Shown here piece by piece: positions 12,617 through 36,324 of a stretch of 45,985 nucleotides of DNA. The first letter of the stretch is position 1, and each line of letters opens with the position of its first letter. The stretch lies in sequence record CP052943.1, one strand, 5' to 3'. A model generated the notes under the pieces. The model ran no database searches. It worked only from the letters and a program-made list of their open reading frames with translations, and had not been told where the DNA came from. The position numbers and the translations under genes are program-made. Source of the stretch: a plasmid.

Positions 12617-13198
12617 TTGAGTTTAATTACAGAAGAAGAATTTGAAAGATCACGTCGTAAAAAGCTCAGAAAAAAACGTAAAAGAAAACATGGTACAAAA
12701 TCAACAGCGAGTATATCTAAGGTCAAAGGTTATACAGAAGAAGATTTTTGCATTTTCGATGATGATAGATATGGAGAAGTATTTAGGAGTACAACAGCAC
12801 CAATTGATTTTATAAACCAAAATGAAAATAATAAGCACATGTCATTTCTAGCGACGCTTTATCGCATGTATGAGGGAGATATTAAACAAATTGGTTTAGC
12901 GTATCATACAAACACTACTGAGTTACAAAACAATTGGTTAGATATTAAAAACAAGGCACAGACAGATGAGCAAAGACTTTTAGCAAGAGAACAACAATTA
13001 AGATTTAAACTTATCTCTGAGTCCCAACTTAATCAAGAGTATTACTTTATTATCTATGGAGATGACGAGAAAGATTTAATTTCAAAAATTAGAAGTTTTA
13101 AAAAGGCTTCTATTGGACTTGTAGAAGAAGAACCACAGACTAAAGAGCAAAAAATTAAATTATTCACTAAATTAAATAACCAAAATACATTTATTTAA
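12617..13198 (+). CDS. Hypothetical conjugation-operon protein (193 aa, basic N-terminus)
   Basis: In-operon ORF; KKLRKKRKRKHG N-terminal basic patch. Confidence 0.45.
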   Translation: MSLITEEEFERSRRKKLRKKRKRKHGTKSTASISKVKGYTEEDFCIFDDDRYGEVFRSTTAPIDFINQNENNKHMSFLATLYRMYEGDIKQIGLAYHTNTTELQNNWLDIKNKAQTDEQRLLAREQQLRFKLISESQLNQEYYFIIYGDDEKDLISKIRSFKKASIGLVEEEPQTKEQKIKLFTKLNNQNTFI

Positions 13199-13214
13199 GG
13201 AGTGAAAAATTGGA

Positions 13215-13523
13215 ATGTCAAAAACATCAAAAAGAAAGGCAAAAACAATCAATATTAATTTAACTGAGAAAGAATATGAGAAAGTTAAACATTTTGCAGA
13301 ACTTCGGAATATGAATCCTACTAGCTATGCAAGACTTGTTGCTTTAGGTAATCGAATTAAACCGACAGTCATTGAGAAAACATATAGTTCAAGTGATGTC
13401 GTTCAACAACTCAAGCAAGACAATGAGGAACTTAAAACGGACATCGAGGCATTACAAAATGAGAATAATGATTTAAAAAGAAAAATTAGCTATTCGAAAG
13501 AAGGACAGCCAAGCACGATGTAA
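13215..13523 (+). CDS. Ribbon-helix-helix DNA-binding protein with coiled-coil tail
   Basis: KTININLTEKEYEKVKHFAELRNMNPTSYARLVALG fits the RHH beta-alpha-alpha pattern. Confidence 0.5.
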   Translation: MSKTSKRKAKTININLTEKEYEKVKHFAELRNMNPTSYARLVALGNRIKPTVIEKTYSSSDVVQQLKQDNEELKTDIEALQNENNDLKRKISYSKEGQPSTM

Positions 13524-13550
13524 CAGCAATTAACCATAAAAGTATGAAAG

Positions 13551-15524
13551 GTGTGTGTTCCCTTAATGGGATTATTATCAAGATTTAAAAAAGATGCAGA
13601 ACCTATTTTGGAAGAAGACTTTGTAGATGACGGGTACGATATGGAAAGTATTAGTCTTTCACAGCCACAAGGTGGATTACAGTTTAAGGAAAGAAACATG
13701 GTAGGTGGAGATGGTTATACAACATGTTTAACTATTTATGATATTCCCTCAAAACTCAATGACAACTGGTTAGATCCAATCGTGAATAGAGAAGGTGTGA
13801 TTTCTATTGTCGATATTGGCGAAGAAGATAGACATCGTACTATAAAAAAATTGCAGCGTTCAATGGGCGAACAATATACACGAGTAATTGATCCCAACGC
13901 TCAAACGCTTTCTAAAATTGAAGCTCGAAATTCTTACTCAACACTTCACTCAATGCTAGAAAAAATAAATTTACATGGAGAAACTATTAAACGTTTTAAC
14001 GTTCGTTTATATATATCTAAAGATACCGAAGAAGAATTAGAGGAAGAGGTAGCATCGATAAGAAAAGATCTAGAAGCTAAGGGTTATAAGGCACAGCTAA
14101 TGCAGTTTGAAACTAAAGATAATTATCTATCTATGTTCTTATCATTAAAACAGCAACAAGAAAATTTAAGTAATTATCGTCGAGGCATTCCTATGGAAGC
14201 TGGTATTCTTGGTGGGTCATATTACTTCAATCATGAACAAATCATTGATGAGCGTGGCGCTTATTATGGCCAAACGCTCACACAAGGTTCTGTTATTTTA
14301 GACTTCTTTAAACATGATGCAATCAGAACTTATTATAATACGGTTATTTTTGGAAAAATGGGTTCCGGTAAATCTACGCTACTTAAGATGATTGAAGAAG
14401 AACAGTACGCACGAGGTAATTTTATTAGAGGCTTTGATAAAGCAAGAGAATTTGGCGCTATTTTAGAAAGACAAGGTGGACATATTATTGCTTTGGACGG
14501 TACAGATGGACGTATTAATTTTTTACAAATATATCCTACAGCCAGCCGTAAGAATGAAAAAGGGGAACATGTTGTTTCTGAGGTTGGTTCATTCAAACAA
14601 CATATTTCTAAATTAAAAATGCAATTTAGTCTAATGAATAACGAATTAACTGATACAGAACTTAAAGAAATCTCAAGTGTTATTTATGACTTTTATATAG
14701 AAAAAGGAATATATGATCCTGATAAAGGCGAAAATCAAAATATCGTTAATTTAAAAAATGAGGATTATCCTGTTTTAAGTGAACTTTATGATTATATTGA
14801 CACGTACATCAAAAATGCGAAAAGAACTGACATTACATCTGAAAAAATTCGCTCATTTGAACGTATTCTGACGACTGTTAAAGAAATGGTAACTGAATAC
14901 GGAGAAATTTTCGATGGGCATACAACGATTAAAGATATGGAAAATGAGCAAGTGGTATTCTTCGACATCGAAGGATTAACCTCTTTATCAAAAGAGGTAC
15001 AAGACACAATGTTATTTACAGCTTTACAATTAATATGGTCTCAAGCGTTAAATCAAGGACGTAAGTACAAAACGATGATTGAAAATGGAGAAATTGATGA
15101 GGTTGACGCTAAGAGGTTTATGTTTTTCATTGATGAGTGTCAAAACATTATCAATGCTAATAATCTACAAGTTGTAGAATTTGTTGTTAAGTTCCAAAAA
15201 GAGATGCGTAAATTCTTAGCTGGTATTATTTTTGCTACACAGTCTCCTAAAGAAATACTTCCAGAGAGTAACGATCAAATTGTAGTAAGTAAATTGAAAC
15301 AAATATTTGCATTAACACAGTACAAATTTTTATTTAACCTTGATTCATCAGAAATTGAACAAATGAAACGAGTACTTGGAGATATTTTGACAGAGTCAGA
15401 GTATCGTATGATTCCGAAGTTTAAAAGGGGTCGAACGTTATTAAGTATTCAAGGTTTAAGTAATACTATTTTCAATGTTCATCCAACTAGACAACAACTA
15501 GATCGATTCAAGGGTGGTCTATAA
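13551..15524 (+). CDS. VirB4/TcpF/ConE-like T4SS ATPase
   Basis: Walker A VIFGKMGSGKST; Walker B MFFIDECQN; about 650 aa. Start uncertain (GTG 13551 or ATG 13566). Confidence 0.8.
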   Translation: MCVPLMGLLSRFKKDAEPILEEDFVDDGYDMESISLSQPQGGLQFKERNMVGGDGYTTCLTIYDIPSKLNDNWLDPIVNREGVISIVDIGEEDRHRTIKKLQRSMGEQYTRVIDPNAQTLSKIEARNSYSTLHSMLEKINLHGETIKRFNVRLYISKDTEEELEEEVASIRKDLEAKGYKAQLMQFETKDNYLSMFLSLKQQQENLSNYRRGIPMEAGILGGSYYFNHEQIIDERGAYYGQTLTQGSVILDFFKHDAIRTYYNTVIFGKMGSGKSTLLKMIEEEQYARGNFIRGFDKAREFGAILERQGGHIIALDGTDGRINFLQIYPTASRKNEKGEHVVSEVGSFKQHISKLKMQFSLMNNELTDTELKEISSVIYDFYIEKGIYDPDKGENQNIVNLKNEDYPVLSELYDYIDTYIKNAKRTDITSEKIRSFERILTTVKEMVTEYGEIFDGHTTIKDMENEQVVFFDIEGLTSLSKEVQDTMLFTALQLIWSQALNQGRKYKTMIENGEIDEVDAKRFMFFIDECQNIINANNLQVVEFVVKFQKEMRKFLAGIIFATQSPKEILPESNDQIVVSKLKQIFALTQYKFLFNLDSSEIEQMKRVLGDILTESEYRMIPKFKRGRTLLSIQGLSNTIFNVHPTRQQLDRFKGGL

Positions 15525-16633
15525 TGAATAAATTAAAACGCTACCTTAACTGGAAAATAATAGGATGGATTGTTAGTTTATTAGGTGCGTTTTGGACGTT
15601 TATTATTGGTGCACTATTATTAATTTTATTAATAGTTGTTGTTTTATTAGGTCTCAATGATTCTGGGCAAAAATCTGGAGGTTGTGACGTTAGTGGCTCC
15701 AGCGTTTCAAGTGATGTTTCTGAAAAAGGTAAAAAAATGTATGAACAAAATGCTAAAGGGGGAGAACTAGAAGGGAAAGTCGATAGTGCTATTAAGATAG
15801 CTAAGGAAGAAAAAGTACCCCCTTCACTTTTCTTAGCAATTATGGCGAGTGAGTCAGGATGGGGTAAATCAGCTAATGCAACGAATCAGCATAACCCTTT
15901 ATCTATTATGGGAAGTGGCCCTCTTAAACACTATGGAACAATTGAAGAAGGGATGAAAGCAGGAGCTAAAAATCTCTACGATTTATACATCTCAGAGGGC
16001 TTAGACACTCCAGCAAAGATTCAGCCAAAATATGCGCCCAATGGGGCTAGCAATGATCCAACAGATTTAAATAGTAATTGGAAAAAATCTGTTGAAAGTA
16101 TTCAAAAGCAGTTATCTGATGGCTCTAAATCCAGCAGTAAAGATGACTCAAATGGTGCTCCTTCTGTTGACTGTTCATCTTCATCATCAACAGTTTCAGG
16201 TGGAGGTACACTTAAAGCATTGTCAAAATTTAAAGGAAGTTTACCAACTCCTAAAAACAAAAGTAACGCAATGCAACCAGCAAGTGGTAATCTTTATACG
16301 AATTTAGAATGTACATGGTACGTCTATAATAGACGTAAAGAATTAGGAATTCCAATTTCTACATTCTGGTATGATGCTGGTATGTGGGCAAATGCTTCAA
16401 AAAAAGATGGCTATAAAGTTGGTAAAAAGCCAGTACGTGGTGCTTGTGTAACATGGCCTATTCAAGGTGGTATGCCTCATGGTCACGTGGCATTCGTAGA
16501 AGGAGTTTCTAAAGATGGTAAAAAAATTCATATAAGTGAGTATAATTGGCCACCTAAGATTCATAGATATGGAGAACGAACAATAAAGGTTGAACCTCAA
16601 ATGACATTTATTTATGACAAGAAAAAGAAATAA
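15524..16633 (+). CDS. Bifunctional cell-wall hydrolase (CwlT/TcpG-like): N-terminal lysozyme/lytic-transglycosylase-like domain plus C-terminal CHAP amidase/peptidase
   Basis: N-terminal TM; LFLAIMASESGWGKS muramidase-like motif; CHAP Cys (ECTWYVYNRR) and His (HGHVAFVEG). Confidence 0.75.
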   Translation: MNKLKRYLNWKIIGWIVSLLGAFWTFIIGALLLILLIVVVLLGLNDSGQKSGGCDVSGSSVSSDVSEKGKKMYEQNAKGGELEGKVDSAIKIAKEEKVPPSLFLAIMASESGWGKSANATNQHNPLSIMGSGPLKHYGTIEEGMKAGAKNLYDLYISEGLDTPAKIQPKYAPNGASNDPTDLNSNWKKSVESIQKQLSDGSKSSSKDDSNGAPSVDCSSSSSTVSGGGTLKALSKFKGSLPTPKNKSNAMQPASGNLYTNLECTWYVYNRRKELGIPISTFWYDAGMWANASKKDGYKVGKKPVRGACVTWPIQGGMPHGHVAFVEGVSKDGKKIHISEYNWPPKIHRYGERTIKVEPQMTFIYDKKKK

Positions 16634-23577: not shown

Positions 23578-24018
23578 TTATGAAATCTGATCCTGAGCAG
23601 TGCCTCTATCAAGATATTCATAACTATAATTTTTACCATTAAAAATGACGTGTCCTTGATACTTTTTATCTAAATCGTGTGCTTTATCTTCTGTAAATAC
23701 CCAATCGATACAATTCACTACAAAAAATTCTTCTGATGGATTAATAGAATATATTTCTTTTTTGAGCGTTTTCTCCATTTTTTTACTATAGACTTTAATC
23801 TTAAAGTTATAAGGAGTTTCACTTTGGTTTGGAAAAATATTTAGTGTATAGTGAGACGTGTTTCTTTTTTCAGTAAATAAAAACTTAGGATTCAAGGACT
23901 TGTTTACATACTTAATCTCATCTGATTTTGTATACTTATATTTGTATTTAAAAAATAAATAACAGCCTAGTAGGGATGCAATAACAACAAACAAAATAAC
24001 GTCGATTAATAATTTCAT
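23578..24018 (-). CDS. Membrane-anchored hypothetical protein (146 aa)
   Basis: N-terminal TM LIDVILFVVIASLLGCYLFF. Confidence 0.45.
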   Translation of the reverse strand: MKLLIDVILFVVIASLLGCYLFFKYKYKYTKSDEIKYVNKSLNPKFLFTEKRNTSHYTLNIFPNQSETPYNFKIKVYSKKMEKTLKKEIYSINPSEEFFVVNCIDWVFTEDKAHDLDKKYQGHVIFNGKNYSYEYLDRGTAQDQIS

Positions 24019-24116
24019 TCTAATAGTTTCATCCTTTCTTTAAAAAGTTATTTTTAGACGCTGAGAGACGCATTGAGTTGCATCGAAAGCGTACTTTGCT
24101 TTATCGTTGTTTTACA

Positions 24117-26567
24117 TTACATCTCTAAATCATTTTCAGTGTCTTTAGTTATGGATTGTCTTCCAGACGTAAATGATTTTTTTCGTTTCTTTTGAATATT
24201 GTCTACATCTTCTTTCTCACTTTGTTCAGCTTTTACTGGTTGTTCATGCTCAATCTGAACTTCCTTTGTTTGAGTCTTTTTTTTGTTATGATCAACTATT
24301 TTTAAGTAATCATTCCAGTCTTTACCCTCACTTGGTAAATTAGATTGAAACACAACATCTTTTTGACTTTGGAACTGAAACTTAACATCTTGTGTCATTC
24401 TTGAAACAAATTCTTTACCATGTTTATCATTATCAACGCAAAGATAAATGTTATCAGGCTCTTTATTATATTTTTTAACAAAGTGATGTACTTGATGGTA
24501 TGCGTTTGTTTCTTTTAATCCAGACATAGAAGCATAAGCGTTTTTTTCTTCTGGGTGGAGTGAAGCATAGCTCATTGCATCTATGGGTGCTTCAAAAATC
24601 AGTAAGTTATCTGGTTCAGTCTTAGAAGTTGTAAAATTAAAACCGAAATTACCATGATTTGTTTCTATTTTTTTGAATGGTTTTTCTGATGTGCCTCGTA
24701 AGTCTTGACCTACAACATTATTATCAGAATCTTTCCATAGGAACGCAACATTATTATGGCTGTCTTGTTTAATGAGGCCTTGCTCTCTTAAATCATCAAC
24801 TAGATTTGAATTTATTTTTCTCTCCTCTACTAAATAGTTATATGCTTTAAATTCATCAGATTTTTTCACATAATTACTTTCATCATATTTAAACTCTGGC
24901 TTTTCTTTTTCGATTTTGATGGATTTATCTAAAGTACCAAAATCATCTGAATTAAGAAGCTCTACGGCATCGTTAAAGTCTTCTTTATAGAGATCTCCAG
25001 CTAGTTCAGGATTTTGAATAAATTGAATTGGGCTACCACTCCAATTTTTCTCTCCTCTACGAGAGTTCCAAAAGAAAGCATTATCTTTTGGTTTAATCAT
25101 TAGAGAGTCATGTTCAACTCCTTTATAAAAACTGCCTGTACGTTCAAAGCTTTGTCCAGCAAATGAGGCAACTTCTAATATTGATTTTTCTTCTGCTATT
25201 TTTATTTTATCTTCCATACTTTTAGCAGTTGATTTTTCAGTAGTAAACTCCAGTTTGTCTTTATAATTATCTTGTTTTAAGCTCATTACAGCATCGGGAT
25301 AACGCATTCCATTATTTACTAAAAAGCGTATTGGATCGCCACCTTGCTTTTTGGAAGTATCATAGTAGATATTTTTTTCAGAATTAACATAGATATTAGG
25401 GTTTGCCTCATCTTTATAATACTTACCATTTTTTTGAACAATTTCATGCCCATTTTGATTAAGTACATCAATAATACTTTTGTTTCTTGCTATTTGCTTA
25501 TCTTCTTTAGTAAGTTTTATGAATTGTTTCTTATCTTCTTTTTTTGATAAAGCTGCGTCTTTGTTTTCTCGTTCGTGGGTTGTGTCTTTTTCTTCTATCT
25601 CAAATGTTTCTGTCTTTTGCAATTCTTCTAAATGCTCAAAATCAATGTGTTGATTAATTTGATTTATGAAACTTCTAGAGATATTTGTTACACGATTAAT
25701 GGTGTTCTTTGTGTCTTTTAAATCTCTCATATTATGAGAGTAATCAGAAATATATTTTATTGATGACTCACTGGGTTCTATACCATAATGTTTACTTACA
25801 ATATAAGCGACCATCTCAGCTTCAGTCTCTTTTTCTTGTCTTGTTAAATTATCTGATGCTTTATGGTGCAAAGCGTGAGTCAATTCGTGAATATACGTGT
25901 GATTTTTTTCTTCGGGTTCTAATCCTTGTCTAAGTCCTATAATATTTTCATTATCTCTTGTTTGAATATTTACACCTTTTTCAGCACCACCAATACTATT
26001 ATTTTGATAGGTATTGTTAGTGTAGTTATCAACTGTTTTTATGTTGTTATCTTCTGCAAAGCTTTGCAGCGCTTTAAAAACATGTTCCGTTGCATTGGGA
26101 GAAGATGTATATAACTTTTCTCTTCTATTAGGATAATACTCTGGAAGATCGTCAGCTTTTGCGTTTGTTTGTGTTACATCAAATACGGTTACAGGCTTAT
26201 AACCATACACCTTATCGATAGCTTTTATCTCATTATTTTTTACTTTTTCTTGAATAGATTCATCAACTTTGTTTAAGGGGAGGAGTTTCCCATCGACATT
26301 TACATGTTTTTTGAATTTAGGAGAAAGTATTTTGATTCCTTTTTCTCCACGCATAACGTGAAACCCTTTATTTTTAAAATGATTATAACTACCTACATAT
26401 TTAGCCGATGGATATTGTGATTGTATTAGTAATAAATTTCGATATGAATAGCTTGGGCATTTTGCAACAAAATTAAGATATTCTTGTACTTTTTCAGGAT
26501 TATCTTTAAATTCTTTCACACGTTCCACAAGAGAGTTAATTAATTCTTTATCCATAAGGAAACACAC
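24117..26567 (-). CDS. ArdC-like ssDNA-binding N-domain plus zincin (HExxH) metalloprotease plus TOPRIM/primase-like C-domain fusion (LtrC/TraC-like)
   Basis: HELTHALHH zincin motif mid-protein; C-terminal EAPIDAMSYASL and CVDNDKHGKEF (TOPRIM acidic motifs); distal gene of relaxase operon. Confidence 0.6.
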   Translation of the reverse strand: MCFLMDKELINSLVERVKEFKDNPEKVQEYLNFVAKCPSYSYRNLLLIQSQYPSAKYVGSYNHFKNKGFHVMRGEKGIKILSPKFKKHVNVDGKLLPLNKVDESIQEKVKNNEIKAIDKVYGYKPVTVFDVTQTNAKADDLPEYYPNRREKLYTSSPNATEHVFKALQSFAEDNNIKTVDNYTNNTYQNNSIGGAEKGVNIQTRDNENIIGLRQGLEPEEKNHTYIHELTHALHHKASDNLTRQEKETEAEMVAYIVSKHYGIEPSESSIKYISDYSHNMRDLKDTKNTINRVTNISRSFINQINQHIDFEHLEELQKTETFEIEEKDTTHERENKDAALSKKEDKKQFIKLTKEDKQIARNKSIIDVLNQNGHEIVQKNGKYYKDEANPNIYVNSEKNIYYDTSKKQGGDPIRFLVNNGMRYPDAVMSLKQDNYKDKLEFTTEKSTAKSMEDKIKIAEEKSILEVASFAGQSFERTGSFYKGVEHDSLMIKPKDNAFFWNSRRGEKNWSGSPIQFIQNPELAGDLYKEDFNDAVELLNSDDFGTLDKSIKIEKEKPEFKYDESNYVKKSDEFKAYNYLVEERKINSNLVDDLREQGLIKQDSHNNVAFLWKDSDNNVVGQDLRGTSEKPFKKIETNHGNFGFNFTTSKTEPDNLLIFEAPIDAMSYASLHPEEKNAYASMSGLKETNAYHQVHHFVKKYNKEPDNIYLCVDNDKHGKEFVSRMTQDVKFQFQSQKDVVFQSNLPSEGKDWNDYLKIVDHNKKKTQTKEVQIEHEQPVKAEQSEKEDVDNIQKKRKKSFTSGRQSITKDTENDLEM

Positions 26568-26591: not shown

Positions 26592-26933
26592 TTACTTATC
26601 TACCTTTGAGATACTTTCTTCATCTTTTATAGATGGCTTTCTAGGATTCTTCATAAATTCTTTATTAATGATATATGTCTCGCCAAACTCGGTATTTTCA
26701 ATATCTTCTAACATATCTTCTGTGAATTCTGATAATAAATAATCATTAGATACAAGATTTTTGAACACAAGTTCTTTTTTGGACTTATCTTTGAATATCA
26801 ATTCGTAAAAGTCCTCTAAACTCGTTTCTGCTTCTTCGTTTATAATTGGGTCTAATTCATTTTCATAATTTAATTTTCTCATTTTTAAATCCTTCCTTTT
26901 AACTAAAATAATTTTTAATATCTTCAGGAGCAT
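26592..26933 (-). CDS. Acidic hypothetical protein (113 aa), translationally coupled to sortase gene
   Basis: Overlaps sortase stop by 35 nt. Confidence 0.4.
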   Translation of the reverse strand: MLLKILKIILVKRKDLKMRKLNYENELDPIINEEAETSLEDFYELIFKDKSKKELVFKNLVSNDYLLSEFTEDMLEDIENTEFGETYIINKEFMKNPRKPSIKDEESISKVDK

Positions 26934-27798
26934 TGGATATTTTCATAGAATGTACCAATTCTCCTCTAATCATTAATCTCTGTCTTGCTTGTAAATCTTG
27001 ACACGTGATTAATGTAATAATGTGATTACCTTGACTATTTTCTACTACTTGGCCTGCGTGCTTGTTTAAAATCTTTCTCTCCGTCGTTTTGTACTGATAT
27101 ACATGAGAACCATCACAAGTAAAGATGTAGTCGCCAATTTGGACTCTATGCAAGGGAGAGAACAAAAGGTTAGGTGCTTCTACATAGTGACCAGCTAAAG
27201 CATAATTGCCTTGTCCCATCTTTTGATTTGGTTTCATAGTACCAGCTCCAACCCAAAGGTTTTGATCAGAAACTCCCTCTAAAATAGGTAAATTTAATTT
27301 GACGTTAGGAATAACAATGCGTCCTCTTAAATAGTTTTTGTTTAAGTGAGCTTTTCTCATATCTGATGCTTTTATAGGTCTAACATTAGAGTAATCATAG
27401 ACAATTCCTTGATCATCCTTTAAAGGTATACTACCATCATTTAATGCTTTAGTTATCTGCTCATGTGTATAATTTGATGTAGAAGAAGCTGAGCCTTTTT
27501 TTAAAACTTTATTTGTTAGATTATTTCGGAGATAGTCTCCTTTTTCTGTATCATCTCGTGGTCTGTTCCCCAAAAGTTTATCCAATTTTTCATTATTCCT
27601 TTTCATTTTATCATTCGGTATGTGAGCTACTTCTTTATTAACATGATGGCTAATCATAGGGGATATAATATGTTCAAAGATAGGATTGATAAATAACAGT
27701 AATACTCCGACAATAAAAGTTAGAGTAATAACTATTTTTATTATTCGTTTCATAATCTTATCTTGTCTGTACTTCTTTCTCTCATCTAAAATACTCAC
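26899..27798 (-). CDS. Sortase (SrtA-like, TLxTC), plasmid-encoded
   Basis: N-terminal TM; catalytic His (ALAGHY) and Cys in HIITLITCQD; conserved Arg downstream. Confidence 0.75.
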   Translation of the reverse strand: MSILDERKKYRQDKIMKRIIKIVITLTFIVGVLLLFINPIFEHIISPMISHHVNKEVAHIPNDKMKRNNEKLDKLLGNRPRDDTEKGDYLRNNLTNKVLKKGSASSTSNYTHEQITKALNDGSIPLKDDQGIVYDYSNVRPIKASDMRKAHLNKNYLRGRIVIPNVKLNLPILEGVSDQNLWVGAGTMKPNQKMGQGNYALAGHYVEAPNLLFSPLHRVQIGDYIFTCDGSHVYQYKTTERKILNKHAGQVVENSQGNHIITLITCQDLQARQRLMIRGELVHSMKISNAPEDIKNYFS

Positions 27799-27803
27799 TT
27801 TAT

Positions 27804-28307
27804 TTACCCCCCAATACCCATAGATAATAAAATTAGTAGTCCATTAAACATCGTGTGTACCAACATAGGATATATGATTCTCTGTGTTTTGTATGTTAAG
27901 TAGCACAAGAGCAAGCCACTTATGATATATGGAATAATAAATCCTGAATGCGCAAGTCCAAATAGAAAAGAACTTATCAAAGCAAAGATGGCTGGATAAT
28001 GGTATTTTTTTAAAAACAATTGAAAAAATAATTTTCTAAATATTAATTCCTCTGTTATAGGCGCTACAACAATCCCCGTAATTAGAAGAAGTGGATTATC
28101 AAAATACTTCATTGTTCTTGAACTCAAAGCACTTGGCTTATATAGACCTGTTTTATCTGCTAAAAAACCAATAGAAATTTGAGTAATAAACATTAGAATT
28201 AGAATAGCTAATGACAATAAAAGCTTTTTCCAGAATTTAAACGATGGAGAGGGGGCTTTTTTTAACTCATTGATCCATTTCCAATTTGGTAAGTGAATAC
28301 TAGCCAT
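27804..28307 (-). CDS. CPBP-family (CAAX protease/Abi) intramembrane metalloprotease
   Basis: Motifs ITEELIFRKLF and FGLAHS within multi-TM protein. Confidence 0.7.
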   Translation of the reverse strand: MASIHLPNWKWINELKKAPSPSFKFWKKLLLSLAILILMFITQISIGFLADKTGLYKPSALSSRTMKYFDNPLLLITGIVVAPITEELIFRKLFFQLFLKKYHYPAIFALISSFLFGLAHSGFIIPYIISGLLLCYLTYKTQRIIYPMLVHTMFNGLLILLSMGIGG

Positions 28308-30512: not shown

Positions 30513-31862
30513 TTAAATACTCATATGGTCTTCTTGCTCTTTAAGATTTCTCTCAATATTTCTTTCCAGTTTTTGACGCTCTATATCATGGATATAGTTA
30601 TTTCTTTTTCTTGCTGTATTTCTAGATAACTGATATAGACTTTGTCGAATTCCTGTTATCGCTTGCTTGAAATTTCTCACACTTTTTTGACGCTCGCGAT
30701 TGTTCGTTTGCTTTATATTCTTATTATACGGTTTTTCTCTTGGTTGTTGAAGTTTTCCTTTTTTCTCTTGTTTTTCCTTTTCTTTTGTTTTTAGTTCTTT
30801 TAGGAAAGCATTACCCACATCACTTTTTAATCGATCTTTTTTATTCTTTTTATAATCATTATATTTTGAATTCTCTCCATAAAGTCTCTTATAGTTACTT
30901 GCTTGTTGATCTAAGATTTCATCTACTCTTTTCTCACTTTCACTATAAAATTGTGAAACATAATTATCAATATATTGATCAATTTCAGATTGAATGGGTT
31001 TAATCTTTTTAGAATTATATGACCATGTTTCGTTTAGTGGAGGTAATTTTTCAACTAAATCATCTAAGTCTTTTTTTTGTTTTAAAATTGATTTAATAGA
31101 GTAAGAATGATACTTTCTGTTTTTTATTTTCTCTTTGACGTTATCTTTCATCTCTTTTTTTAATTCATCAAATTCTTTCAATAGTCCAATATCTTGGTTA
31201 ATTGAGTTAGCAAAAGTACTTTTCATATTTCTAATTGTTTTAGAAGTTCTTTTACCTTTATATTGTCCTTTGAATTTTCCTTCTTTTATAGTTGTTCGTG
31301 TGTTTTTTTCTTCGGAAGTAGCTATATGGATATGAATATTGTCAGTATCATAATGAATATTCGCGCACCAAAATGTATGATTTTTATCCATTTTATTATC
31401 TTTAATCATTTGATTAATCATTCGACGAGTGGCTTTTTTTATTTTTGGTTCGTCTAATTTATCTAATGATTCATTAAATAAATGATTATCTTTAAGAAAT
31501 TGATTATCGAAAGATACAACATCTTGATACATGACATGATTCTTTTTATTTGCTTCTTGAAACTTATCTTTTAATCTGTTCATCTCTTTTTCTTCGATGA
31601 ATTCATGTTCAGAATTAAAGCTCATAGTTGTTCTTTTTTTTACATTTTCTTTATTATATCCTTGTTTCTTTTTTAATTTATCTACTGACATATAATCAAG
31701 ATACTTATCAAAAAGATTGTTTTCTATATCTGGTTTTTTAACATTTTTTTTATTCTTTTCTGTGCTAATATAGTTGATAAATTTCTTATAACTTTCTCCC
31801 TTTGAACTACCAACTTTAAAATCAGAAATTAAATTAATAGCCGGACTAGTTTTTTCGCTCAT
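30513..31862 (-). CDS. HUH relaxase (MOBQ/MOBP-like) with 3-His motif
   Basis: HYDTDNIHIHIA (HxDx..HxH), N-terminal Tyr-containing region; basic C-terminus. Confidence 0.7.
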   Translation of the reverse strand: MSEKTSPAINLISDFKVGSSKGESYKKFINYISTEKNKKNVKKPDIENNLFDKYLDYMSVDKLKKKQGYNKENVKKRTTMSFNSEHEFIEEKEMNRLKDKFQEANKKNHVMYQDVVSFDNQFLKDNHLFNESLDKLDEPKIKKATRRMINQMIKDNKMDKNHTFWCANIHYDTDNIHIHIATSEEKNTRTTIKEGKFKGQYKGKRTSKTIRNMKSTFANSINQDIGLLKEFDELKKEMKDNVKEKIKNRKYHSYSIKSILKQKKDLDDLVEKLPPLNETWSYNSKKIKPIQSEIDQYIDNYVSQFYSESEKRVDEILDQQASNYKRLYGENSKYNDYKKNKKDRLKSDVGNAFLKELKTKEKEKQEKKGKLQQPREKPYNKNIKQTNNRERQKSVRNFKQAITGIRQSLYQLSRNTARKRNNYIHDIERQKLERNIERNLKEQEDHMSI

Positions 31863-31873
31863 TTAAATCACAC

Positions 31874-32257
31874 CTAAAATTCTCTTTTATTTGCAAGATA
31901 ATGTTTAGATCTATTAACAGCTGATTGATAGTGATCATTAATATGATTTCTTAAATCTTTCATGCTAGCAGTTGTAACAGCTTTTTCTTCCGAAATGTCA
32001 GCTAACATATGTAAAGCAACTAAAATATTGAAATCAGCCCCGTTTAATTTTTTCTTTATATAGCTAAGATCATCGATGATTTTTTGATGATTTTCATCTT
32101 CTTTATTTTCATTATTTTTGTTTTCATTTTTGATATAGTAGTCAATTAAAAAGCCAATACTTGAAGATAAAGTTGATTTATTAGTATCTCTTTGAATCAT
32201 CTTTAACTTATCATCATAAAGTTGATTTAAGTAGAAACTTCTTTTGATTTTTCTCAT
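31874..32257 (-). CDS. MobC-like RHH relaxosome accessory protein
   Basis: KRSFYLNQLYDDKLKMIQRDTNKSTLSSSIGFLIDYY matches the MobC RHH pattern. Confidence 0.55.
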   Translation of the reverse strand: MRKIKRSFYLNQLYDDKLKMIQRDTNKSTLSSSIGFLIDYYIKNENKNNENKEDENHQKIIDDLSYIKKKLNGADFNILVALHMLADISEEKAVTTASMKDLRNHINDHYQSAVNRSKHYLANKREF

Positions 32258-32258
32258 T

Positions 32259-32537
32259 TTATTCCTCCTCTATAGCTTGAAAAATATTTTGCTGATACTC
32301 TAATAGTTCAATCATATATGTTTGGTTTTTCATGACTTCAAGTAATATTTCTTTTAAATCTGAGTTAAAATTAATACTCATTTCATTTTCTAATTTCTTA
32401 GAATAATAGTCTTTAATTATATCTATATAAAGATCATTGACTGAAAGATTTTTATTTTTTGCTTCAGCCTGAACTTGATCATCTAGGATGACAGGCAAGT
32501 TATTTAGAGTTCGTCTTTTCATTCCATTTTCATTCAA
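32259..32537 (-). CDS. Ribbon-helix-helix DNA-binding protein, first gene of relaxase operon
   Basis: RRTLNNLPVILDDQVQAEAKNKNLSVNDLYIDIIKDY. Confidence 0.5.
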   Translation of the reverse strand: MNENGMKRRTLNNLPVILDDQVQAEAKNKNLSVNDLYIDIIKDYYSKKLENEMSINFNSDLKEILLEVMKNQTYMIELLEYQQNIFQAIEEE

Positions 32538-32640
32538 AAATCATTCCACCTCTTATTTGATAGAGCGTTTAAATTCAAAAAACTTTTCTATCTTAATTTT
32601 TTCTTTATTAAACAGTTTAGATTAATAACAGTCAGTTTAA

Positions 32641-32880
32641 TGAGCTGCGTAGCTCTGTTATGTATACCAAATGGAGACAAAATAAACTTAATTTGTATAC
32701 CGAATGGATACCTTTTTATGTCTCTATTCGGTATACATTTACGGATTTTAGGGGTTTTTTAGTCTCTATTTGGTATATATTATGTTATTAAATCTATTAT
32801 TTATACGCACATATAGTAATCCAATTTGACACTGTCAAATTAATGTTTTCAACAAAAAGTCTACCTAATGGAGACTTTTT
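32641..32880. promoter_or_regulatory. Candidate oriT/operator: four copies of 17-bp GTATACCRAATRGAGAC (two direct, two inverted), a fifth degenerate copy in a hairpin, and a perfect 7/1/7 palindrome
   Basis: 32662-32678 and 32695-32711 (+), 32720-32736 and 32762-32778 (inverted); tttgacactgtcaaa 32825-32839; aaaaagtctacctaatggagacttttt 32854-32880; hairpin gagctgcgtagctc 32642-32655. Confidence 0.5.
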
Positions 32881-33009
32881 GTGCAGATTACTCTTATGCT
32901 CTTTAAATTGGTATAGTTTCATTATACACTATCAGATTTAAGTATTCAAACATGTGCATCCCTTTGATGGATTACATATATCCATTTATTTTTAGTTAAT
33001 AACACAAAA

Positions 33010-33052: not shown

Positions 33053-33111
33053 AATTTTAAATTTAAATTACTCATGCCATTCATCTATTAGTTCATTTAA
33101 TCTATCGTCAA

Positions 33112-33516
33112 TTAATCATTGTTCCATTCTTCATATAATTCCTCGTAATCTTTATCGACAAAAACTAAATCATCAAAATTCAGATGAGATGTTACTTTAG
33201 TTACTTCATTTAAATCTTCAAATTTTTCAATTGTTATATTACTAAAAGTTCCAATTTTATCTGTATGATTTATTTTATATTTAAAACTTACTTCTTGAAT
33301 CATTTGTAATTGTTCAAGGTCTAAAATCACTTCAACTTCAATTTTTTCTTCATCACCTAATGTAGTATAAGCTAACGGAGTTCTTAAATTTTTATCAAAA
33401 ATTTCTTCGTTTATTTCAAATTTTTCTTCAAATTCTCTTGTTCTATAGTCCTTTATATTTTCGCAAATTAATAGATAATTCATGATAAAATCTGTCGTAT
33501 TGTTTACTTTTTCCAT
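33112..33516 (-). CDS. Small, strongly acidic cytoplasmic protein (134 aa), cargo of repeat copy 1
   Basis: SD ggagg plus 9 nt plus ATG embedded in the repeat; D/E-rich (ends EELYEEWNND). Confidence 0.6.
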   Translation of the reverse strand: MEKVNNTTDFIMNYLLICENIKDYRTREFEEKFEINEEIFDKNLRTPLAYTTLGDEEKIEVEVILDLEQLQMIQEVSFKYKINHTDKIGTFSNITIEKFEDLNEVTKVTSHLNFDDLVFVDKDYEELYEEWNND

Positions 33517-33518
33517 TA

Positions 33519-33780
33519 AAAAATACCTCCAATTTTTTATTATTTAATTTATTTTTGCTGTGTTGCAAAGCCACTGCAACAAGTCGTTATGAATGATTAC
33601 AAGGATAAAAGCTATAAATTTTTCGACTGGCTTTCAAGCCACTAAGGAAAAATTTTGCGCCTTGTAATCATGAATAGACTTGTTAAAAGCATCATCAAAG
33701 ATGATGCGTGTGAGCGTGCCAACACAAAAAAATAAATAATAAAAATTTATAATAAAAAGGAAAGTGATACCTCACTTTCC
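33519..33780 (-). repeat. Structured leader repeat, copy 1 (terminator hairpin, AT-rich tract, nested inverted repeats, SD)
   Basis: ggaaagtgatacctcactttcc 33759-33780; 12-bp long-range IR atgattacaagg/ccttgtaatcat (33593-33604/33660-33671); tgttgcaaagccactgcaaca 33561-33581; gcatcatcaaagatgatgc 33689-33707. Confidence 0.75.
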
Positions 33781-33935
33781 TACAGTGTTATATTAATTTC
33801 AGTAATATAAATGATCTATTTGATTAGATCATTTATTCATTTTTCAACTTAAATAAATGACAGTTTATTTGAGTTGACTTTATTATTATATTTAGACAAT
33901 TGATAAAACCCCCGTTTATTTAGGGGGCTAATTTC

Positions 33936-34598
33936 TTATTTAACTATTTCTATTCTTTTATTTAAACATTCATTTTCGCAATTGTATTGGTCAAGTAGTT
34001 GTTCTAAAACAATTAATTCTAATACTCCATTATCTAAAGCATTTTTTTGTTTTTTCAATTCACTTAAATAATCTAATTTCCATTCAATTAGTTCTGCTCC
34101 TGTATAATTAGCTCTAATAAATTCTGTTTCTTCTATTAATAAATTTATGATGAAATCTTCAATTTCATGTGGTTTTAATTCAACTAATTTAGTTGCTTGT
34201 TCATCTTTATAAAATTCTAGCTTTAACTTCTGAAAATTAGTTTGATAATTTTTGAAACCATACTTACTAATATAACGATTGATTAATGCTTCATCTGATG
34301 GGTCAATCTCAATTGTATTAACTTCATAATGATTAGGTGTTAAGTCATTATATATATTAAGAAATTGCTTTAAATTTGATAAATCAACTTGTGGTTTTTG
34401 CAATATTTCATAAAGTTTTATCAATTCGTCATAATGATACTCCAATTGTTCATCAATTGTATAATGCTTATCTATTTCATCTTTTAATGAGACAAAAAGT
34501 TCTTTCATAGCATCAAATAATTCATCTTCTAAATAATTACCAAAAATATCAACTTCATCAATTGTAATAACATTTAATTCTACTAATTGTTCAGTCAC
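33936..34598 (-). CDS. Acidic cytoplasmic protein (about 220 aa), cargo of repeat copy 2; GTG start at 34598
   Basis: SD cctcc (34606-34610, minus-sense ggagg), 8-nt spacer, GTG; ORF track extends to 34613 but that codon lies upstream of the SD. Confidence 0.55.
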   Translation of the reverse strand: MTEQLVELNVITIDEVDIFGNYLEDELFDAMKELFVSLKDEIDKHYTIDEQLEYHYDELIKLYEILQKPQVDLSNLKQFLNIYNDLTPNHYEVNTIEIDPSDEALINRYISKYGFKNYQTNFQKLKLEFYKDEQATKLVELKPHEIEDFIINLLIEETEFIRANYTGAELIEWKLDYLSELKKQKNALDNGVLELIVLEQLLDQYNCENECLNKRIEIVK

Positions 34599-34600
34599 TT

Positions 34601-34861
34601 TAAATACCTCCACTTTTTTTATTATTTAATTTATTTTTGCTGTGTTGCAAAGCCACTGCAACAAGTCGTTATGAATGATTACAAGGATAAAAGCTATAAA
34701 TTTTTCGACTGGCTTTCAAGCCACTAAGGAAAAATTTTGCGCCTTGTAATCATGAATAGACTTGTTAAAAGCATCATCAAAGATGATGCGTGTGAGCGTG
34801 CCAACACAAAAAAATAAATAATAAAAATTCATAATAAAAGGAAAGTGATACCTCACTTTCC
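34601..34861 (-). repeat. Structured leader repeat, copy 2, near-identical to copy 1
   Basis: Same IRs; terminator hairpin 34840-34861; extra perfect hairpin aaggtgctaatgaagattcattagcacctt 34898-34927 just outside. Confidence 0.75.
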
Positions 34862-35452
34862 ATCATTTTCGTTCGTATTTTCCTATAGAAAATACACAAG
34901 GTGCTAATGAAGATTCATTAGCACCTTGCCATTAAAATACTGATTTATTTTATTTCTGTCTTTATCAGGTAAGATTTGCACAATTTGAATGAATTCTGAT
35001 TGATTATTCTTATCCTTTAATGGTTTAAAAGTTATATTACTCATATACACGTGATAGTTTAAATGCTATCAAATTTCATCTTCCTTTCTCATAGAAAATA
35101 CTGATATTTACACTCGCTCATATTCTCTTGTTTTTCTTCTCTAATTAGGGAGTATTCTAGAAAAACACTTACACTAGCTAATAAAATATTCAATGATTTT
35201 AACAATATAATACTTTTTCTTCTCATTTGAATTCTCCTTGTTAAATGATATAATAAAATCAAATTGAAGGAGGAGTTAGGGCTCCTCCTTACTGAACTAG
35301 TCTACTAATTCAGTAATTAAAGTTATTATTGCTCTTAATAAGTTAATTAAGCTTATTAGGAGCTTTTTTGTTGATTCTTTCAATGTGGAGCCAACCTCCT
35401 TCAAATTAATCTCTCACTACCCAGCCAACCACCACATAGTGAGAATGGCATC

Positions 35453-35714
35453 ACCTCCTTTTCTTTTTTTATTATTTATTTAATTTTTTCTGTGTTGCAA
35501 AGCCACTGCAACAAGTCGTTATGATTGATTACAAGGATAAAAGCTATAAAATTTTTCGACTGGCTTACAAGCCATAAAGAAAAAATTTATGCGCCTTGTA
35601 ATCATGAATAGACTTGTTAAAAGCATCATCAAAGATGATGCGTGTGAGCGTGCTAACACAAAAAAATAAATAATAAAATTTCATAATAAAAAGGAAAGTG
35701 ATACTTCACTTTCC
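35453..35714 (-). repeat. Structured leader repeat, copy 3 (diverged; no intact downstream cargo gene)
   Basis: Point differences including in the terminator stem and one arm of the long IR; downstream only micro-ORFs. Confidence 0.65.
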
Positions 35715-35925
35715 TTCATTTTCATTCGTATTTTCATTTAGAAAATACACAAGGTGCTAATAATGAAAATTCATTAGCACCTTGCCATTAAAGTATTAAT
35801 TAAACTTCTTTACTTGAATTAAATTATTATATGTATTAGATTGATAACGTTAAAGACAAAGCATCTGATGTTGTTGACAAGTTTAAAAAGTAAAATCTTA
35901 AGCCACTCATATAGAGTGGCTTTTC

Positions 35926-36324
35926 TTATTCAATATCTTTTATATTTTTCATGGGTATTTCCATGGTCTCGTTCCCATCTTCGTTACTAATAATAATAAC
36001 TTGATTGAGTGTATCTACCGTTTTAATGTAAGCCTCATGCTGGTAATAATAACCTTGCTTCCAATAAGTCACAATTGCTTTTTCTTTAAAGAATTTTTTC
36101 CAGTTTACTTTTTCATTTAGAACATTAAGTTGATCGTCTAAAATCGTAGGACGTTCTGTTTTATTTTGATCTTCCATATATTGTTCTATTTGTTGATATT
36201 GCTCAGGAATTGTCTTAAAAGCTAGCCACTTAACAAACCCTCTGCCTTCAGGAACATTAGAATCTAAATACTCTCTAGGAATCTTACGATAATCCGTTTC
36301 ATCCTTATATTGTTTAGGAATCAT
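35926..36324 (-). CDS. YolD-like (UmuD-analogue family) protein, tentative
   Basis: ATG at 36324 with SD gagg 9 nt upstream; size and KWLAFKTIPEQ...VTYWKQGYYYQHEAYIKTVD...IIISNEDG resemble the YolD-like family from memory. Confidence 0.35.
   Translation of the reverse strand: MIPKQYKDETDYRKIPREYLDSNVPEGRGFVKWLAFKTIPEQYQQIEQYMEDQNKTERPTILDDQLNVLNEKVNWKKFFKEKAIVTYWKQGYYYQHEAYIKTVDTLNQVIIISNEDGNETMEIPMKNIKDIE

Follow-up and report, generated by a model that had tools for sequence, protein, structure and literature searches.

The 45,985-nt stretch of plasmid DNA analysed here (sequence record CP052943.1; "the window" in what follows) is a Staphylococcus epidermidis-type conjugative plasmid whose nearest plasmid records measure ~45-48 kb. 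Beside its origin of transfer (oriT) lie three copies of a ~290-bp cassette with a GC content of 32-34%, each set ahead of small genes that are read from the minus strand. The cassette is best explained as a self-contained, insulated expression unit for plasmid establishment genes. In F- and I-type plasmids, early transient expression from the incoming single strand switches on anti-defence genes before the host reacts, and to our knowledge expression from single-strand promoters has been shown only in enterobacterial plasmids. We give even chances to the proposal that the cassette is a Gram-positive counterpart of the Frpo/ssi single-strand promoters, not homologous to them and possibly with a priming role as well. 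Just short of that stands the fuller proposal that these cassettes are the first class of single-strand DNA promoter in Gram-positive conjugative plasmids, with a duplex -35 region and a pre-melted -10 region, that they would fire in a burst until the complementary strand is made, and that they mark the establishment regulon of staphylococcal plasmids. Everything that sequence can reveal fits a single-strand promoter, and the transcription steps that would follow folding are what we infer from it.

In the sense of its gene, each cassette consists of a terminator-like stem-loop, an A/T tract, a structured stretch of ~195 nt, an A-rich tail, a GGAGG Shine-Dalgarno (SD) sequence, and a start codon. 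A repeat search of the window returns the three as direct repeats (33533-33762, 34615-34844, and 35467-35696), and the envelopes of an nhmmer profile, which run from the terminator through the long hairpin and the A-rich tail to the SD, place copy 1 at 33521..33806 (258 bits), copy 2 at 34590..34893, and copy 3 at 35450..35744, all on the minus strand. A sequence-only reading of this DNA had located three tandem units at these places, and they are real, but its figure of more than 95% identity is true of copies 1 and 2 only (98-99%); copy 3 is ~94% identical and differs by a few small indels. The parts that this reading listed are likewise present, namely the terminator, a 12-bp inverted repeat, an apical GGCTTGAAAGCC hairpin, a side hairpin, and GGAGG with a start codon, and their fold lies far beyond chance. 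The terminator-like hairpin is GGAAAGTGA(G/A)GTATCACTTTCC plus a T-run in the three copies. In copy 1 it reads GGAAAGTGAGGTATCACTTTCC then TTTTTATT (33759..33780), with a stem that shows compensatory changes across copies, and its equivalents are at 34840-34861 in copy 2 and 35693-35714 in copy 3 (minus strand in each case). Thirteen terminator-like sites occur in the region, where shuffled sequences give an expectation of 0.8. The SD of the first cargo gene is at 33526..33530 and its ATG start at 33516-33514 (minus strand). Wherever an SD and start could be identified, 10-15 nt separate the end of the element from GGAGG or AGGAG and the start codon.

Copies 2 and 3 have ~100 further bases in common upstream of the terminator. 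This 5' extension (34896..34929 in copy 2 and 35749-35785 in copy 3, minus strand) contains a hairpin with a 15-bp stem and a small TATTTTC/GAAAATA hairpin. Its terminator-proximal part, at least, also occurs in window-type copies on other plasmids, and in copy 2 it overlaps the end of a 48-aa open reading frame (ORF; 34904-35050).

The structured stretch is predicted to fold as one long imperfect hairpin with a three-way junction, and the hairpins first described as separate elements are parts of it. It spans 33547..33740 in copy 1 (on either strand, more stable on the + strand), ~34629-34822 in copy 2, and ~35479-35674 in copy 3. As single-stranded DNA it has a folding energy of -58.3 kcal/mol on the + strand and -56.9 kcal/mol on the minus strand, against -24 +/- 3.5 for shuffled sequences (z = -9.5 to -9.9), and as RNA it reaches -84.4 kcal/mol (z = -8.8). 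The long, unusually stable, imperfect single-strand hairpin of the Frpo/ssi class is thus found here too. At the junction a side hairpin, GCATCATC-TTT-GATGATGC in copy 1 (33689..33707), recurs at 34771-34789 and 35623-35641. A tgttgca...tgcaaca hairpin, also put forward as part of the element, was rejected as a conserved feature: it is broken in pWBG749-type copies and competes with conserved long-range pairs.

Conservation of this fold was assessed on an alignment of 36 distinct copies, for which RNAalifold gives a consensus of 59 pairs in eight helices. Standard pairs fill 98.5% of the cells. Compensatory changes occur in 12 of the 59 pairs, with both sides changed in 111 cells. When the partner columns are slid by 1-3 positions, 0-8 such cells are found, and none of 500 column shuffles reaches the observed value. 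The compensatory pairs are spread over the terminator stem (helix 1), the side hairpin, both long-range stems, and the apical hairpin. Two of them (CG/UA, 21:15, and CG/AU, 25:11) fall in the side hairpin, whose consensus is GCA(T/C)(C/A)ATC...GAT(G/T)(A/G)TGC. The hairpin fold is under selection.

The cassette is not confined to the window: ~95 Staphylococcus plasmid records carry it, with recurrent cargo families. In a blastn comparison with 72,556 plasmid records the element turns up at 186 places in 95 records, and a second query gives 92 records. Ninety-four of these are labelled Staphylococcus (S. epidermidis, S. aureus, S. haemolyticus, S. capitis, S. saprophyticus, S. xylosus, and S. 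saccharolyticus), and the remaining one, labelled Klebsiella quasipneumoniae (NZ_CP031260.1), is probably mislabelled. Fifty of the 95 records are typed as conjugative, and copy number ranges from one to seven, with as many as seven copies packed into 6 kb. pWBG749 itself is among the hosts, which span two distant relaxase lineages; small non-conjugative plasmids carry cassettes as well. No blastn match occurs in 50,697 phage records. A strict exact-pattern scan of 185,579 representative genomes (one per species) gives four matches only, all in plasmid-like or contaminant contigs: two are staphylococcal, and the others are labelled Pseudoroseomonas/Teichococcus aestuarii (L005 in our numbering of sequences) and Actinoplanes sp. 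(L007). The scan thus says little more than that the element is limited to staphylococcal plasmids. These two contigs and the Klebsiella record, all assigned to unrelated genera, hold near-identical staphylococcal plasmid sequence, including cassettes and cargo, and probably reflect contamination or mislabelling. A Macrococcus MobP2 plasmid has no analogous repeats, and in the MobP2 plasmid pHTbeta, judged from its annotation only, all genes are co-oriented with the relaxase gene.

The position of the cassettes gains meaning from the direction of transfer. The 11-nt oriT core CTTATGCTCTT, defined for pWBG749 and its relatives by O'Brien (2015), who delimited the nick site (nic) to CCTTATGCTCTTACGG (PMC4652767), has its sole exact match in the window at 32893..32903 (+ strand), which would therefore hold nic. 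On its 5' side a repeat search finds an array of 17-bp direct and inverted repeats (32660..32878, + strand), closed by a hairpin, AAAGTCT...AGACTTT (32856-32878), that lies 14 nt 5' of the core. The array is adjoined by two small accessory genes (31874-32537; an RHH accessory context) and a gene for a 449-aa MobP2 relaxase (30513-31862), all on the minus strand. The core, the inverted repeats 5' of it, and the adjoining RHH and MobP2 genes place this oriT, by context, in the pWBG749 family. The nicked strand of MOBP, MOBQ, and MOBF origins has the inverted repeat on the 5' side of nic, and pLS20, whose nick was mapped biochemically, fits this rule (PMC5313138). The window has its inverted repeat on the 5' side of the core, an arrangement published for pWBG749 and found for pLS20, and from this we infer that the + strand is the one transferred. 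This strand would enter 5' first toward higher coordinates, carry the three cassettes in its first 3 kb, and act as template for every gene behind them. With the nicked strand so assigned, the window cassettes occupy the leading region, as Frpo/ssi elements do: they begin ~620 nt 3' of the core. The sequence-only reading had placed the start of the cassette array about 300 bp from the 17-bp repeats; from the core, the distance is ~620 nt to copy 1 and ~210 nt to the stop codon of the first cargo gene.

Relative to its relaxase genes, the window oriT has the opposite orientation to that of pWBG749, which implies that a window-type relaxase gene would enter the recipient last, as in pLS20 and F, and a pWBG749-type relaxase gene first. 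The window relaxase is only ~30% identical to SmpP of pWBG749, so that one identical 11-nt core serves two relaxases of ~30% identity (30513-32903 in the window and 26665-28160 in our pWBG749 sequence, L004).

Cores and cassettes were located by one common script in all sequences. Eighteen sequences have an exact core and at least one cassette (the window, L002, L003 [pNY5A], L004 [pWBG749], L007, L009, L010, L011, L013, L014, pWBG731, L016, L017, L018, and L024-L027), and in each of the 18 the cassettes lie on the strand opposite the nearest core. This agrees with the earlier claim that the cargo genes use the transferred strand as template in the region expected to enter first, and it is the relation that Frpo/ssi elements have to their downstream genes, given the nicked strand assigned above. 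The rule holds in two architectures. In the window type, the core is inverted relative to the relaxase genes, abuts the cargo block, and is 0.6-3.1 kb from the cassettes. In the pWBG749 type, the core is on the relaxase coding strand and is followed by a ~10-kb smpO-relaxase-topoisomerase-primase operon and then by a convergent cargo block. Since the rule holds in both, cassette orientation tracks the core and not the relaxase operon. One exception in the set is L025, which has a second core in the opposite orientation.

The two strands of the hairpin are not equivalent. Of the transferred and sense strands, the transferred one has the more stable fold in 35 of 36 copies when DNA parameters are used (by 4.2 kcal/mol on average) and in 33 of 36 when RNA parameters are used. 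The energy of the consensus fold is -23.5 against -18.4 for the transferred and sense strands with DNA parameters, and -50.3 against -42.1 with RNA parameters. As a positive control, F Frpo1 gives -125.0 on the transferred strand and -113.9 on its complement, and Frpo2 gives -119.1 and -111.6. The evidence leans, though not decisively, toward the transferred strand as the one that folds.

Canonical promoters were sought on both strands and scored as matches out of 12 hexamer positions. Between the terminator and the SD on the sense strand there is no conserved sigma-A promoter; the best candidates there average no more than 7.7/12 and their hexamers vary. The best conserved promoter-like motif is TTG(T/C)(A/C)(A/T)-16 nt-TA(A/T)AAG (mean 8.7/12), located on the 3' arm of the transferred-strand hairpin, and its 16-nt spacing is exact in 35 of 35 copies although the spacer sequence differs between lineages. 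The predicted sites on the + strand of the window pair TTGTAA at 33662-33667 with TAAAAG at 33684-33689 after 16 nt in copy 1, TTGTAA at 34744-34749 with TAAAAG at 34766-34771 in copy 2, and TTGTAA at 35596-35601 with TAAAAG at 35618-35623 in copy 3. Of the two hexamers, the -35-like one falls within the 12-bp stem, which is perfectly paired, and the -10-like one at the three-way junction, where it is mostly unpaired and the covarying side hairpin follows directly. The opposite arm has no such fixed spacing (18-20 nt at the equivalent place), and the "-10" available in the double-stranded form is TGCAGT, which has no key A at its second position. This arrangement suggests a model in which the junction mimics an open complex, so that transcription would start near GCAACACAG in copy 1 (33558-33566) and give an unstructured leader of ~45 nt. 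On the earlier question of whether the inverted repeat brings -35- and -10-like hexamers into a duplex, the cassette offers a TTG-type/TA-type pair with invariant 16-nt spacing and does not rebuild canonical boxes. A consensus scan flagged no boxes in F Frpo itself either. The conserved terminator sits immediately upstream of the hairpin and is predicted to block read-through into it.

If the cassette is a single-strand promoter, it could work as follows. The relaxase would nick the + strand in the oriT core (32893-32903), and this strand would enter 5' first with the cassettes in its first 3 kb. Each ~195-nt element on it is predicted to fold into the long hairpin with its three-way junction, a fold that the covariation supports. 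Host RNA polymerase with sigma-A would then recognise the duplex stem, probably at the candidate TTGTAA-16 nt-TAAAAG of the 3' arm, whose -10-like part may already be melted at the junction. The 3' arm of the transferred-strand hairpin would play the non-template strand and the 5' arm the template, and polymerase, moving toward oriT, would pass from the hairpin into the A-rich tail, GGAGG, and the cargo gene. The transcript would be ended by the terminator hairpin that heads the next cassette. Once the complementary strand had been made the hairpin would be gone, and the genes would presumably fall silent in a double-stranded form that offers TGCAGT as its -10. Short RNAs from the hairpin may also prime complementary-strand synthesis, as proposed for F Frpo.

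Several observations weigh against the single-strand promoter. Every step of the mechanism beyond folding is inferred, and the nicked strand of pWBG749-type origins is assigned from the position of the inverted repeat. The number of lineages is small, such that 18 of 18 for orientation amounts to ~2-3 independent observations, or ~2-5 when taken together with the 35 of 36 for strand stability. In pWBG749-type plasmids the cassettes are ~10 kb from nic. In pWBG731 a second cluster of three copies has the opposite orientation, within an IS257-bounded cointegrated segment. The promoter-like motif itself is imperfect: the stem does not rebuild canonical boxes, the candidate -10, TA(A/T)AAG, has no highly conserved final T, and the candidate -35 agrees at just 3-5 of 6 positions. 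At ~195 nt and -44 to -58 kcal/mol, the staphylococcal hairpin is also shorter and weaker than those of Frpo/ssi (~330-480 nt and -110 to -125 kcal/mol). The sense-strand fold has G-U pairs at two well-populated positions (31 of 36 and 16 of 36 copies) that become A-C mismatches on the transferred strand, although the transferred-strand fold carries wobble pairs of its own and the best fold of each strand has its own set. Finally, the five EGeRS1 repeats of the Bacillus plasmid pLS20 fold 26-32 kcal/mol better on the strand reported not to be transferred, and they precede establishment genes even though the transferred strand is reported to be the non-template strand. Because EGeRS1 shows a larger asymmetry toward the reportedly non-transferred strand, strand asymmetry is not diagnostic alone, and the EGeRS1 case implies that structured repeats can serve establishment genes by another mechanism.

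Two of these points invite further description. The opposite cluster of pWBG731 (23582-25650 of our sequence L012, 48581-50649 of the record) is nearly identical to the cassettes of S. haemolyticus pNY5A; it looks like a recent cointegrate and is a natural test case for whether orientation matters. The EGeRS1 copies that we folded lie at 8007-8428, 9762-10393, 12992-13740, 15910-16530, and 17844-18468 of L023 (NC_015148, 36000-65774). Their more stable strand is the one complementary to the establishment-gene mRNA, and the literature has the sense strand as the transferred one.

The alternative that survives best, although we consider it unlikely, is that the cassette acts as a transcribed RNA leader and insulator. 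The terminator would stop read-through, and a hairpin in the 5' untranslated region or between cistrons would control processing (for example, by RNase III), stability, or translation of transcripts from ordinary double-strand promoters that might be weak or regulated. The element is always co-oriented with the downstream gene and ends just before the SD, its RNA fold is very stable, the sense-strand fold has G-U pairs at two well-populated positions, and the pWBG731 cluster is the wrong way round for a single-strand promoter. A sigma-70-like site, TTAACG-16-TATAAT, is also present upstream of copy 3 (35853-35826). That site, however, is outside the repeat, and in related plasmids such as L017 a divergent CsbD gene occupies that side, as judged by gene content only. 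No conserved promoter separates the terminator from the hairpin, and transcripts from a promoter upstream of the terminator would themselves be terminated. The fold does not sequester the SD. Even with RNA parameters it is the antisense, transferred strand that gives the better fold in 33 of 36 copies, and this explanation gives no reason for orientation to track the oriT core instead of the relaxase operon.

Less probable again is an operator-like role comparable to that of EGeRS1, in which the cassette is the cis-acting site of some other establishment-gene mechanism. A plasmid repressor or an anti-terminator might bind the conserved arms and allow expression only after conversion to double-stranded DNA, in the manner of zygotic induction (compare ArdK/ArdR of pKM101 and Reg576 of p576). 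The phenomenology is the same as that of EGeRS1: several highly structured copies next to ribosome-binding sites (RBSs), no evident sigma-A promoter, and a block to read-through. In addition, long blocks are invariant even where they are unpaired, which suggests recognition by a protein, and the plasmids encode several small RHH and HTH proteins. Set against this, the cassette is not homologous to EGeRS1 in sequence and has no consistently linked regulator gene, and small non-conjugative plasmids have cassettes without one. The repressor version calls for a double-strand promoter, which the promoter search did not reveal. The side hairpin is contained in one arm, and its covariation shows that intrastrand pairing is selected and not just the half-sites of a dimeric protein.

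Slightly behind this we place the view that the hairpins only prime, as single-strand origins (sso/ssi) on the transferred strand at which host RNA polymerase or the DUF3991-TOPRIM primase of the plasmid makes primers, their adjacency to genes being incidental. The orientation relative to oriT is what a single-strand origin requires, and a DUF3991/TOPRIM protein is encoded by every conjugative host examined. Staphylococcal rolling-circle plasmids offer familiar examples of sso hairpins, 160-250 nt long, that are primed by RNA polymerase (PMC5703833), and F Frpo was itself originally found as a priming signal (PMC12672017). However, the RSB motif of the ssoA, ssoU, ssoT, and ssoW types is absent from the cassettes, which have no blastn match to small rolling-circle plasmids. 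Priming alone also fails to explain the fixed distance to the SD and start codon in copies where these were found, the built-in terminator, and the presence of up to seven copies in 6 kb. A selfish, MITE-like miniature repeat that has spread within plasmids without a role for them would account for similar palindromic copies on one plasmid, but is very improbable given an insertion site that is constant relative to the SD and start codon, a single orientation, internal covariation that shows selection on the fold, and a count of just four exact-pattern matches in the representative genomes, all on plasmid-like or contaminant contigs, with none in phages.

The genes that the cassettes precede are consistent with a single-strand promoter that serves plasmid establishment. 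Copy 1 heads a 134-aa acidic orphan of family A (33112..33516, isoelectric point [pI] 4.3), and copy 2 heads a 220-aa acidic orphan of family B (33936..34598, pI 4.4) that begins with GTG 8 nt after GGAGG; both genes are on the minus strand. The two proteins were described earlier as unrelated, and so they are to one another; on other plasmids, however, members of the family of each recur behind the cassette. The first ORFs after cassettes fall into recurrent families that include A (121-134 aa), B (218-232 aa), a 65-aa family, a fusion of A with the 65-aa family, several others, and tiny hydrophobic peptides. Acidity is pervasive, with a pI below 5 for 24 of 27 distinct first-gene products and a median of 4.4; the background median is 8.9 for 29 window ORFs of at least 120 aa, a crude set taken mechanically from all six frames. 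Neither Pfam nor PHROGs offers a credible family for the cargo proteins, and the only homologues of the first two are on staphylococcal plasmids. Of the AlphaFold models, that of the 134-aa protein is unusable (pLDDT 45), and that of the 220-aa protein is mediocre (pLDDT 64.6) and has nothing below E = 0.46 in a Foldseek search of the PDB. Of the earlier picture of acidic anti-defence cargo, the acidity therefore stands. No likeness to known Ard, Acr, or DNA-mimic proteins was found by sequence or, with models that are poor to mediocre, by fold, which neither supports nor excludes the idea. The cargo would act during establishment, plausibly against host defences.

Copy 3 had been judged decayed and bereft of its cargo. 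Instead, it heads a small-peptide module (35089..35440, minus strand) that consists of a conserved short leader, a 28-aa peptide, MKESTKKLLISLINLLRAIITLITELVD (35297-35383, minus strand), a strong hairpin (35267-35290), and a 45-aa peptide, MRRKSIILLKSLNILLA... (35089-35226, minus strand). The module is kept in five plasmids: the window, L010 (42055-42475), L014 (3590-4010), L016 (29625-30045), and L017 (17350-17770). The 28-aa peptide is amphipathic, with the consensus M(K/R)E(S/N)TKKLLISLINLLRAIITLITELVD, and in pWBG749 one cassette heads a 29-aa hydrophobic peptide. The small peptides behind cassettes have the appearance of type I toxin-like or membrane peptides. The two Frpo copies of F are separated by the hok-like flmAB, which is believed to protect against recombination of one copy with the other (PMC9849209).

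Almost all plasmids examined have a YolD-like gene within a few kilobases of their cassettes, in one orientation or the other: at 35926-36324 in the window, 11780-12196 in L004, 40503-40901 in L010, 13513-13926 in L011, 2498-2896 in L014, 28595-28993 in L016, 18404-18802 in L017, and 11243-11641 in L024. A YolD-like gene is likewise found near the establishment region of pLS20 (L023, 19871-20203). The UmuD/PsiB-like SOS theme that the sequence-only reading attached to this gene is an analogy only.

Plasmids of the pWBG749 family and their oriT mimics mobilise a large share of staphylococcal resistance plasmids. On the Gram-positive side the sole studied analogue, EGeRS1 of pLS20, has no established mechanism, and the 290-bp cassette makes the question of Gram-positive single-strand promoters directly testable. 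If the cassette is such a promoter, at least 10 orphan families of small acidic proteins and tiny hydrophobic peptides become prime candidates for anti-restriction, anti-CRISPR, and anti-SOS functions. Cassette position alone would then list candidate anti-defence proteins in S. aureus and S. epidermidis, and the cassette would be a possible target for blocking plasmid establishment. If it proves to be an RNA leader instead, it would still be an undescribed, widespread cis-regulatory element of clinically important plasmids.

Whether the cassette represents a described class of element can be judged against several known systems. It was first put forward as an element class not yet described. 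This agrees with Rfam, which gives no hit at the gathering score across the window and at E <= 1 just a sub-threshold match to SpF39 (29 against a 60-bit threshold), and with full-text literature searches, which turned up neither a staphylococcal single-strand promoter nor this repeat. It needs qualification in that EGeRS1 repeats upstream of establishment operons were already known (PMC8708921). Samuel et al., in their survey of leading regions, also report no Frpo-like sequence in their Gram-positive example (PMC11541004).

The Frpo/ssi elements (Frpo1 and Frpo2 of F, ssi1-3 of ColIb-P9, and classes 1-3 of pESBL) are present more than once in the leading region, as homologous long hairpins that each precede early genes (PMC9849209; PMC12672017). 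In pESBL, three classes of single-strand promoter have been confirmed by 5' rapid amplification of cDNA ends, and the two new ones are conserved in F (PMC12672017). The staphylococcal cassette shares with them its multiple copies, its leading-region position, a long imperfect hairpin before early genes, and a template that would be the transferred strand. In both, the transferred strand folds better than its complement, and in both a toxin-like small gene lies between copies (flmAB in F, small hydrophobic peptides on the staphylococcal plasmid). The differences are that the staphylococcal element is AT-rich, belongs to a Firmicute host, has a built-in upstream terminator, and presents a three-way junction in place of a stem that rebuilds canonical -35 and -10 boxes; its promoter activity is a prediction. 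The cassette profile gives nothing at E <= 10 in an nhmmer search of the F leading region, and a blastn comparison of Frpo1 and Frpo2 with the window returns only chance 11-18-mers.

EGeRS1 of the Bacillus pLS20 family (Val-Calvo et al. 2021) has no promoter activity on double-stranded DNA and blocks read-through (PMC8708921). Its authors rejected a single-strand promoter on the ground that the transferred strand is reported to be the non-template strand (PMC8708921), whereas in the staphylococcal cassette the strand that we take to be transferred would be the template. Both systems are found on Gram-positive conjugative plasmids in similar copies (4-5 for EGeRS1), each directly upstream of the RBS of an establishment operon, with many inverted repeats, no sigma-A promoter found, and variable orphan cargo. 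The read-through block shown for EGeRS1 is predicted for the staphylococcal cassette from its terminator. EGeRS1 is 420-750 bp long and GC-rich (51%, on a plasmid of 38%), in contrast to the ~290 bp and 32-34% of the cassette. With more than 60% identity as the standard for EGeRS1 homology, the nhmmer profile has no hit at E <= 10 in the 36-65.8-kb region of pLS20 that holds all five copies.

That Firmicute RNA polymerase can use hairpins in single-stranded DNA is known from the single-strand origins of rolling-circle plasmids (PMC5703833). The ssoA (palA) and ssoU types of staphylococcal rolling-circle plasmids are comparable to the cassette: their hairpins measure 160-250 nt, function in one orientation only, on the strand that is displaced or transferred, and are recognised by host RNA polymerase. 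The cassette differs in that it has no RSB, is multi-copy but not found on rolling-circle plasmids, and is joined to an SD and a gene. Allowing up to three mismatches to the RSB (for example, TTTATGCCGAGAAAA; PMC6395029), the window has four hits where 3.65 are expected by chance, and none is inside a cassette; membership in ssoA or ssoU was rejected on this basis. The CS-6 motif of sso (TAGCGT/A) was compared by eye on the alignment, without a search, and no conserved form of it stands out: the apical sequence is TAGCTT in the window (sense strand) and TAGTGC or TATTGC in other lineages. The conserved upstream regions of more than 400 bp in the pKM101 establishment units (ArdK/ArdR) and EGeRS2/Reg576 of p576 share with the cassette the use of repeated regulatory DNA to mark a regulon of several small operons. 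Those regions, however, hold ordinary promoters that are repressed by a plasmid protein, and the cassette has no evident promoter or linked repressor of this kind. Although a member of none of the Frpo, EGeRS1, and sso sequence families, the staphylococcal cassette is best filed as functionally Frpo-like.

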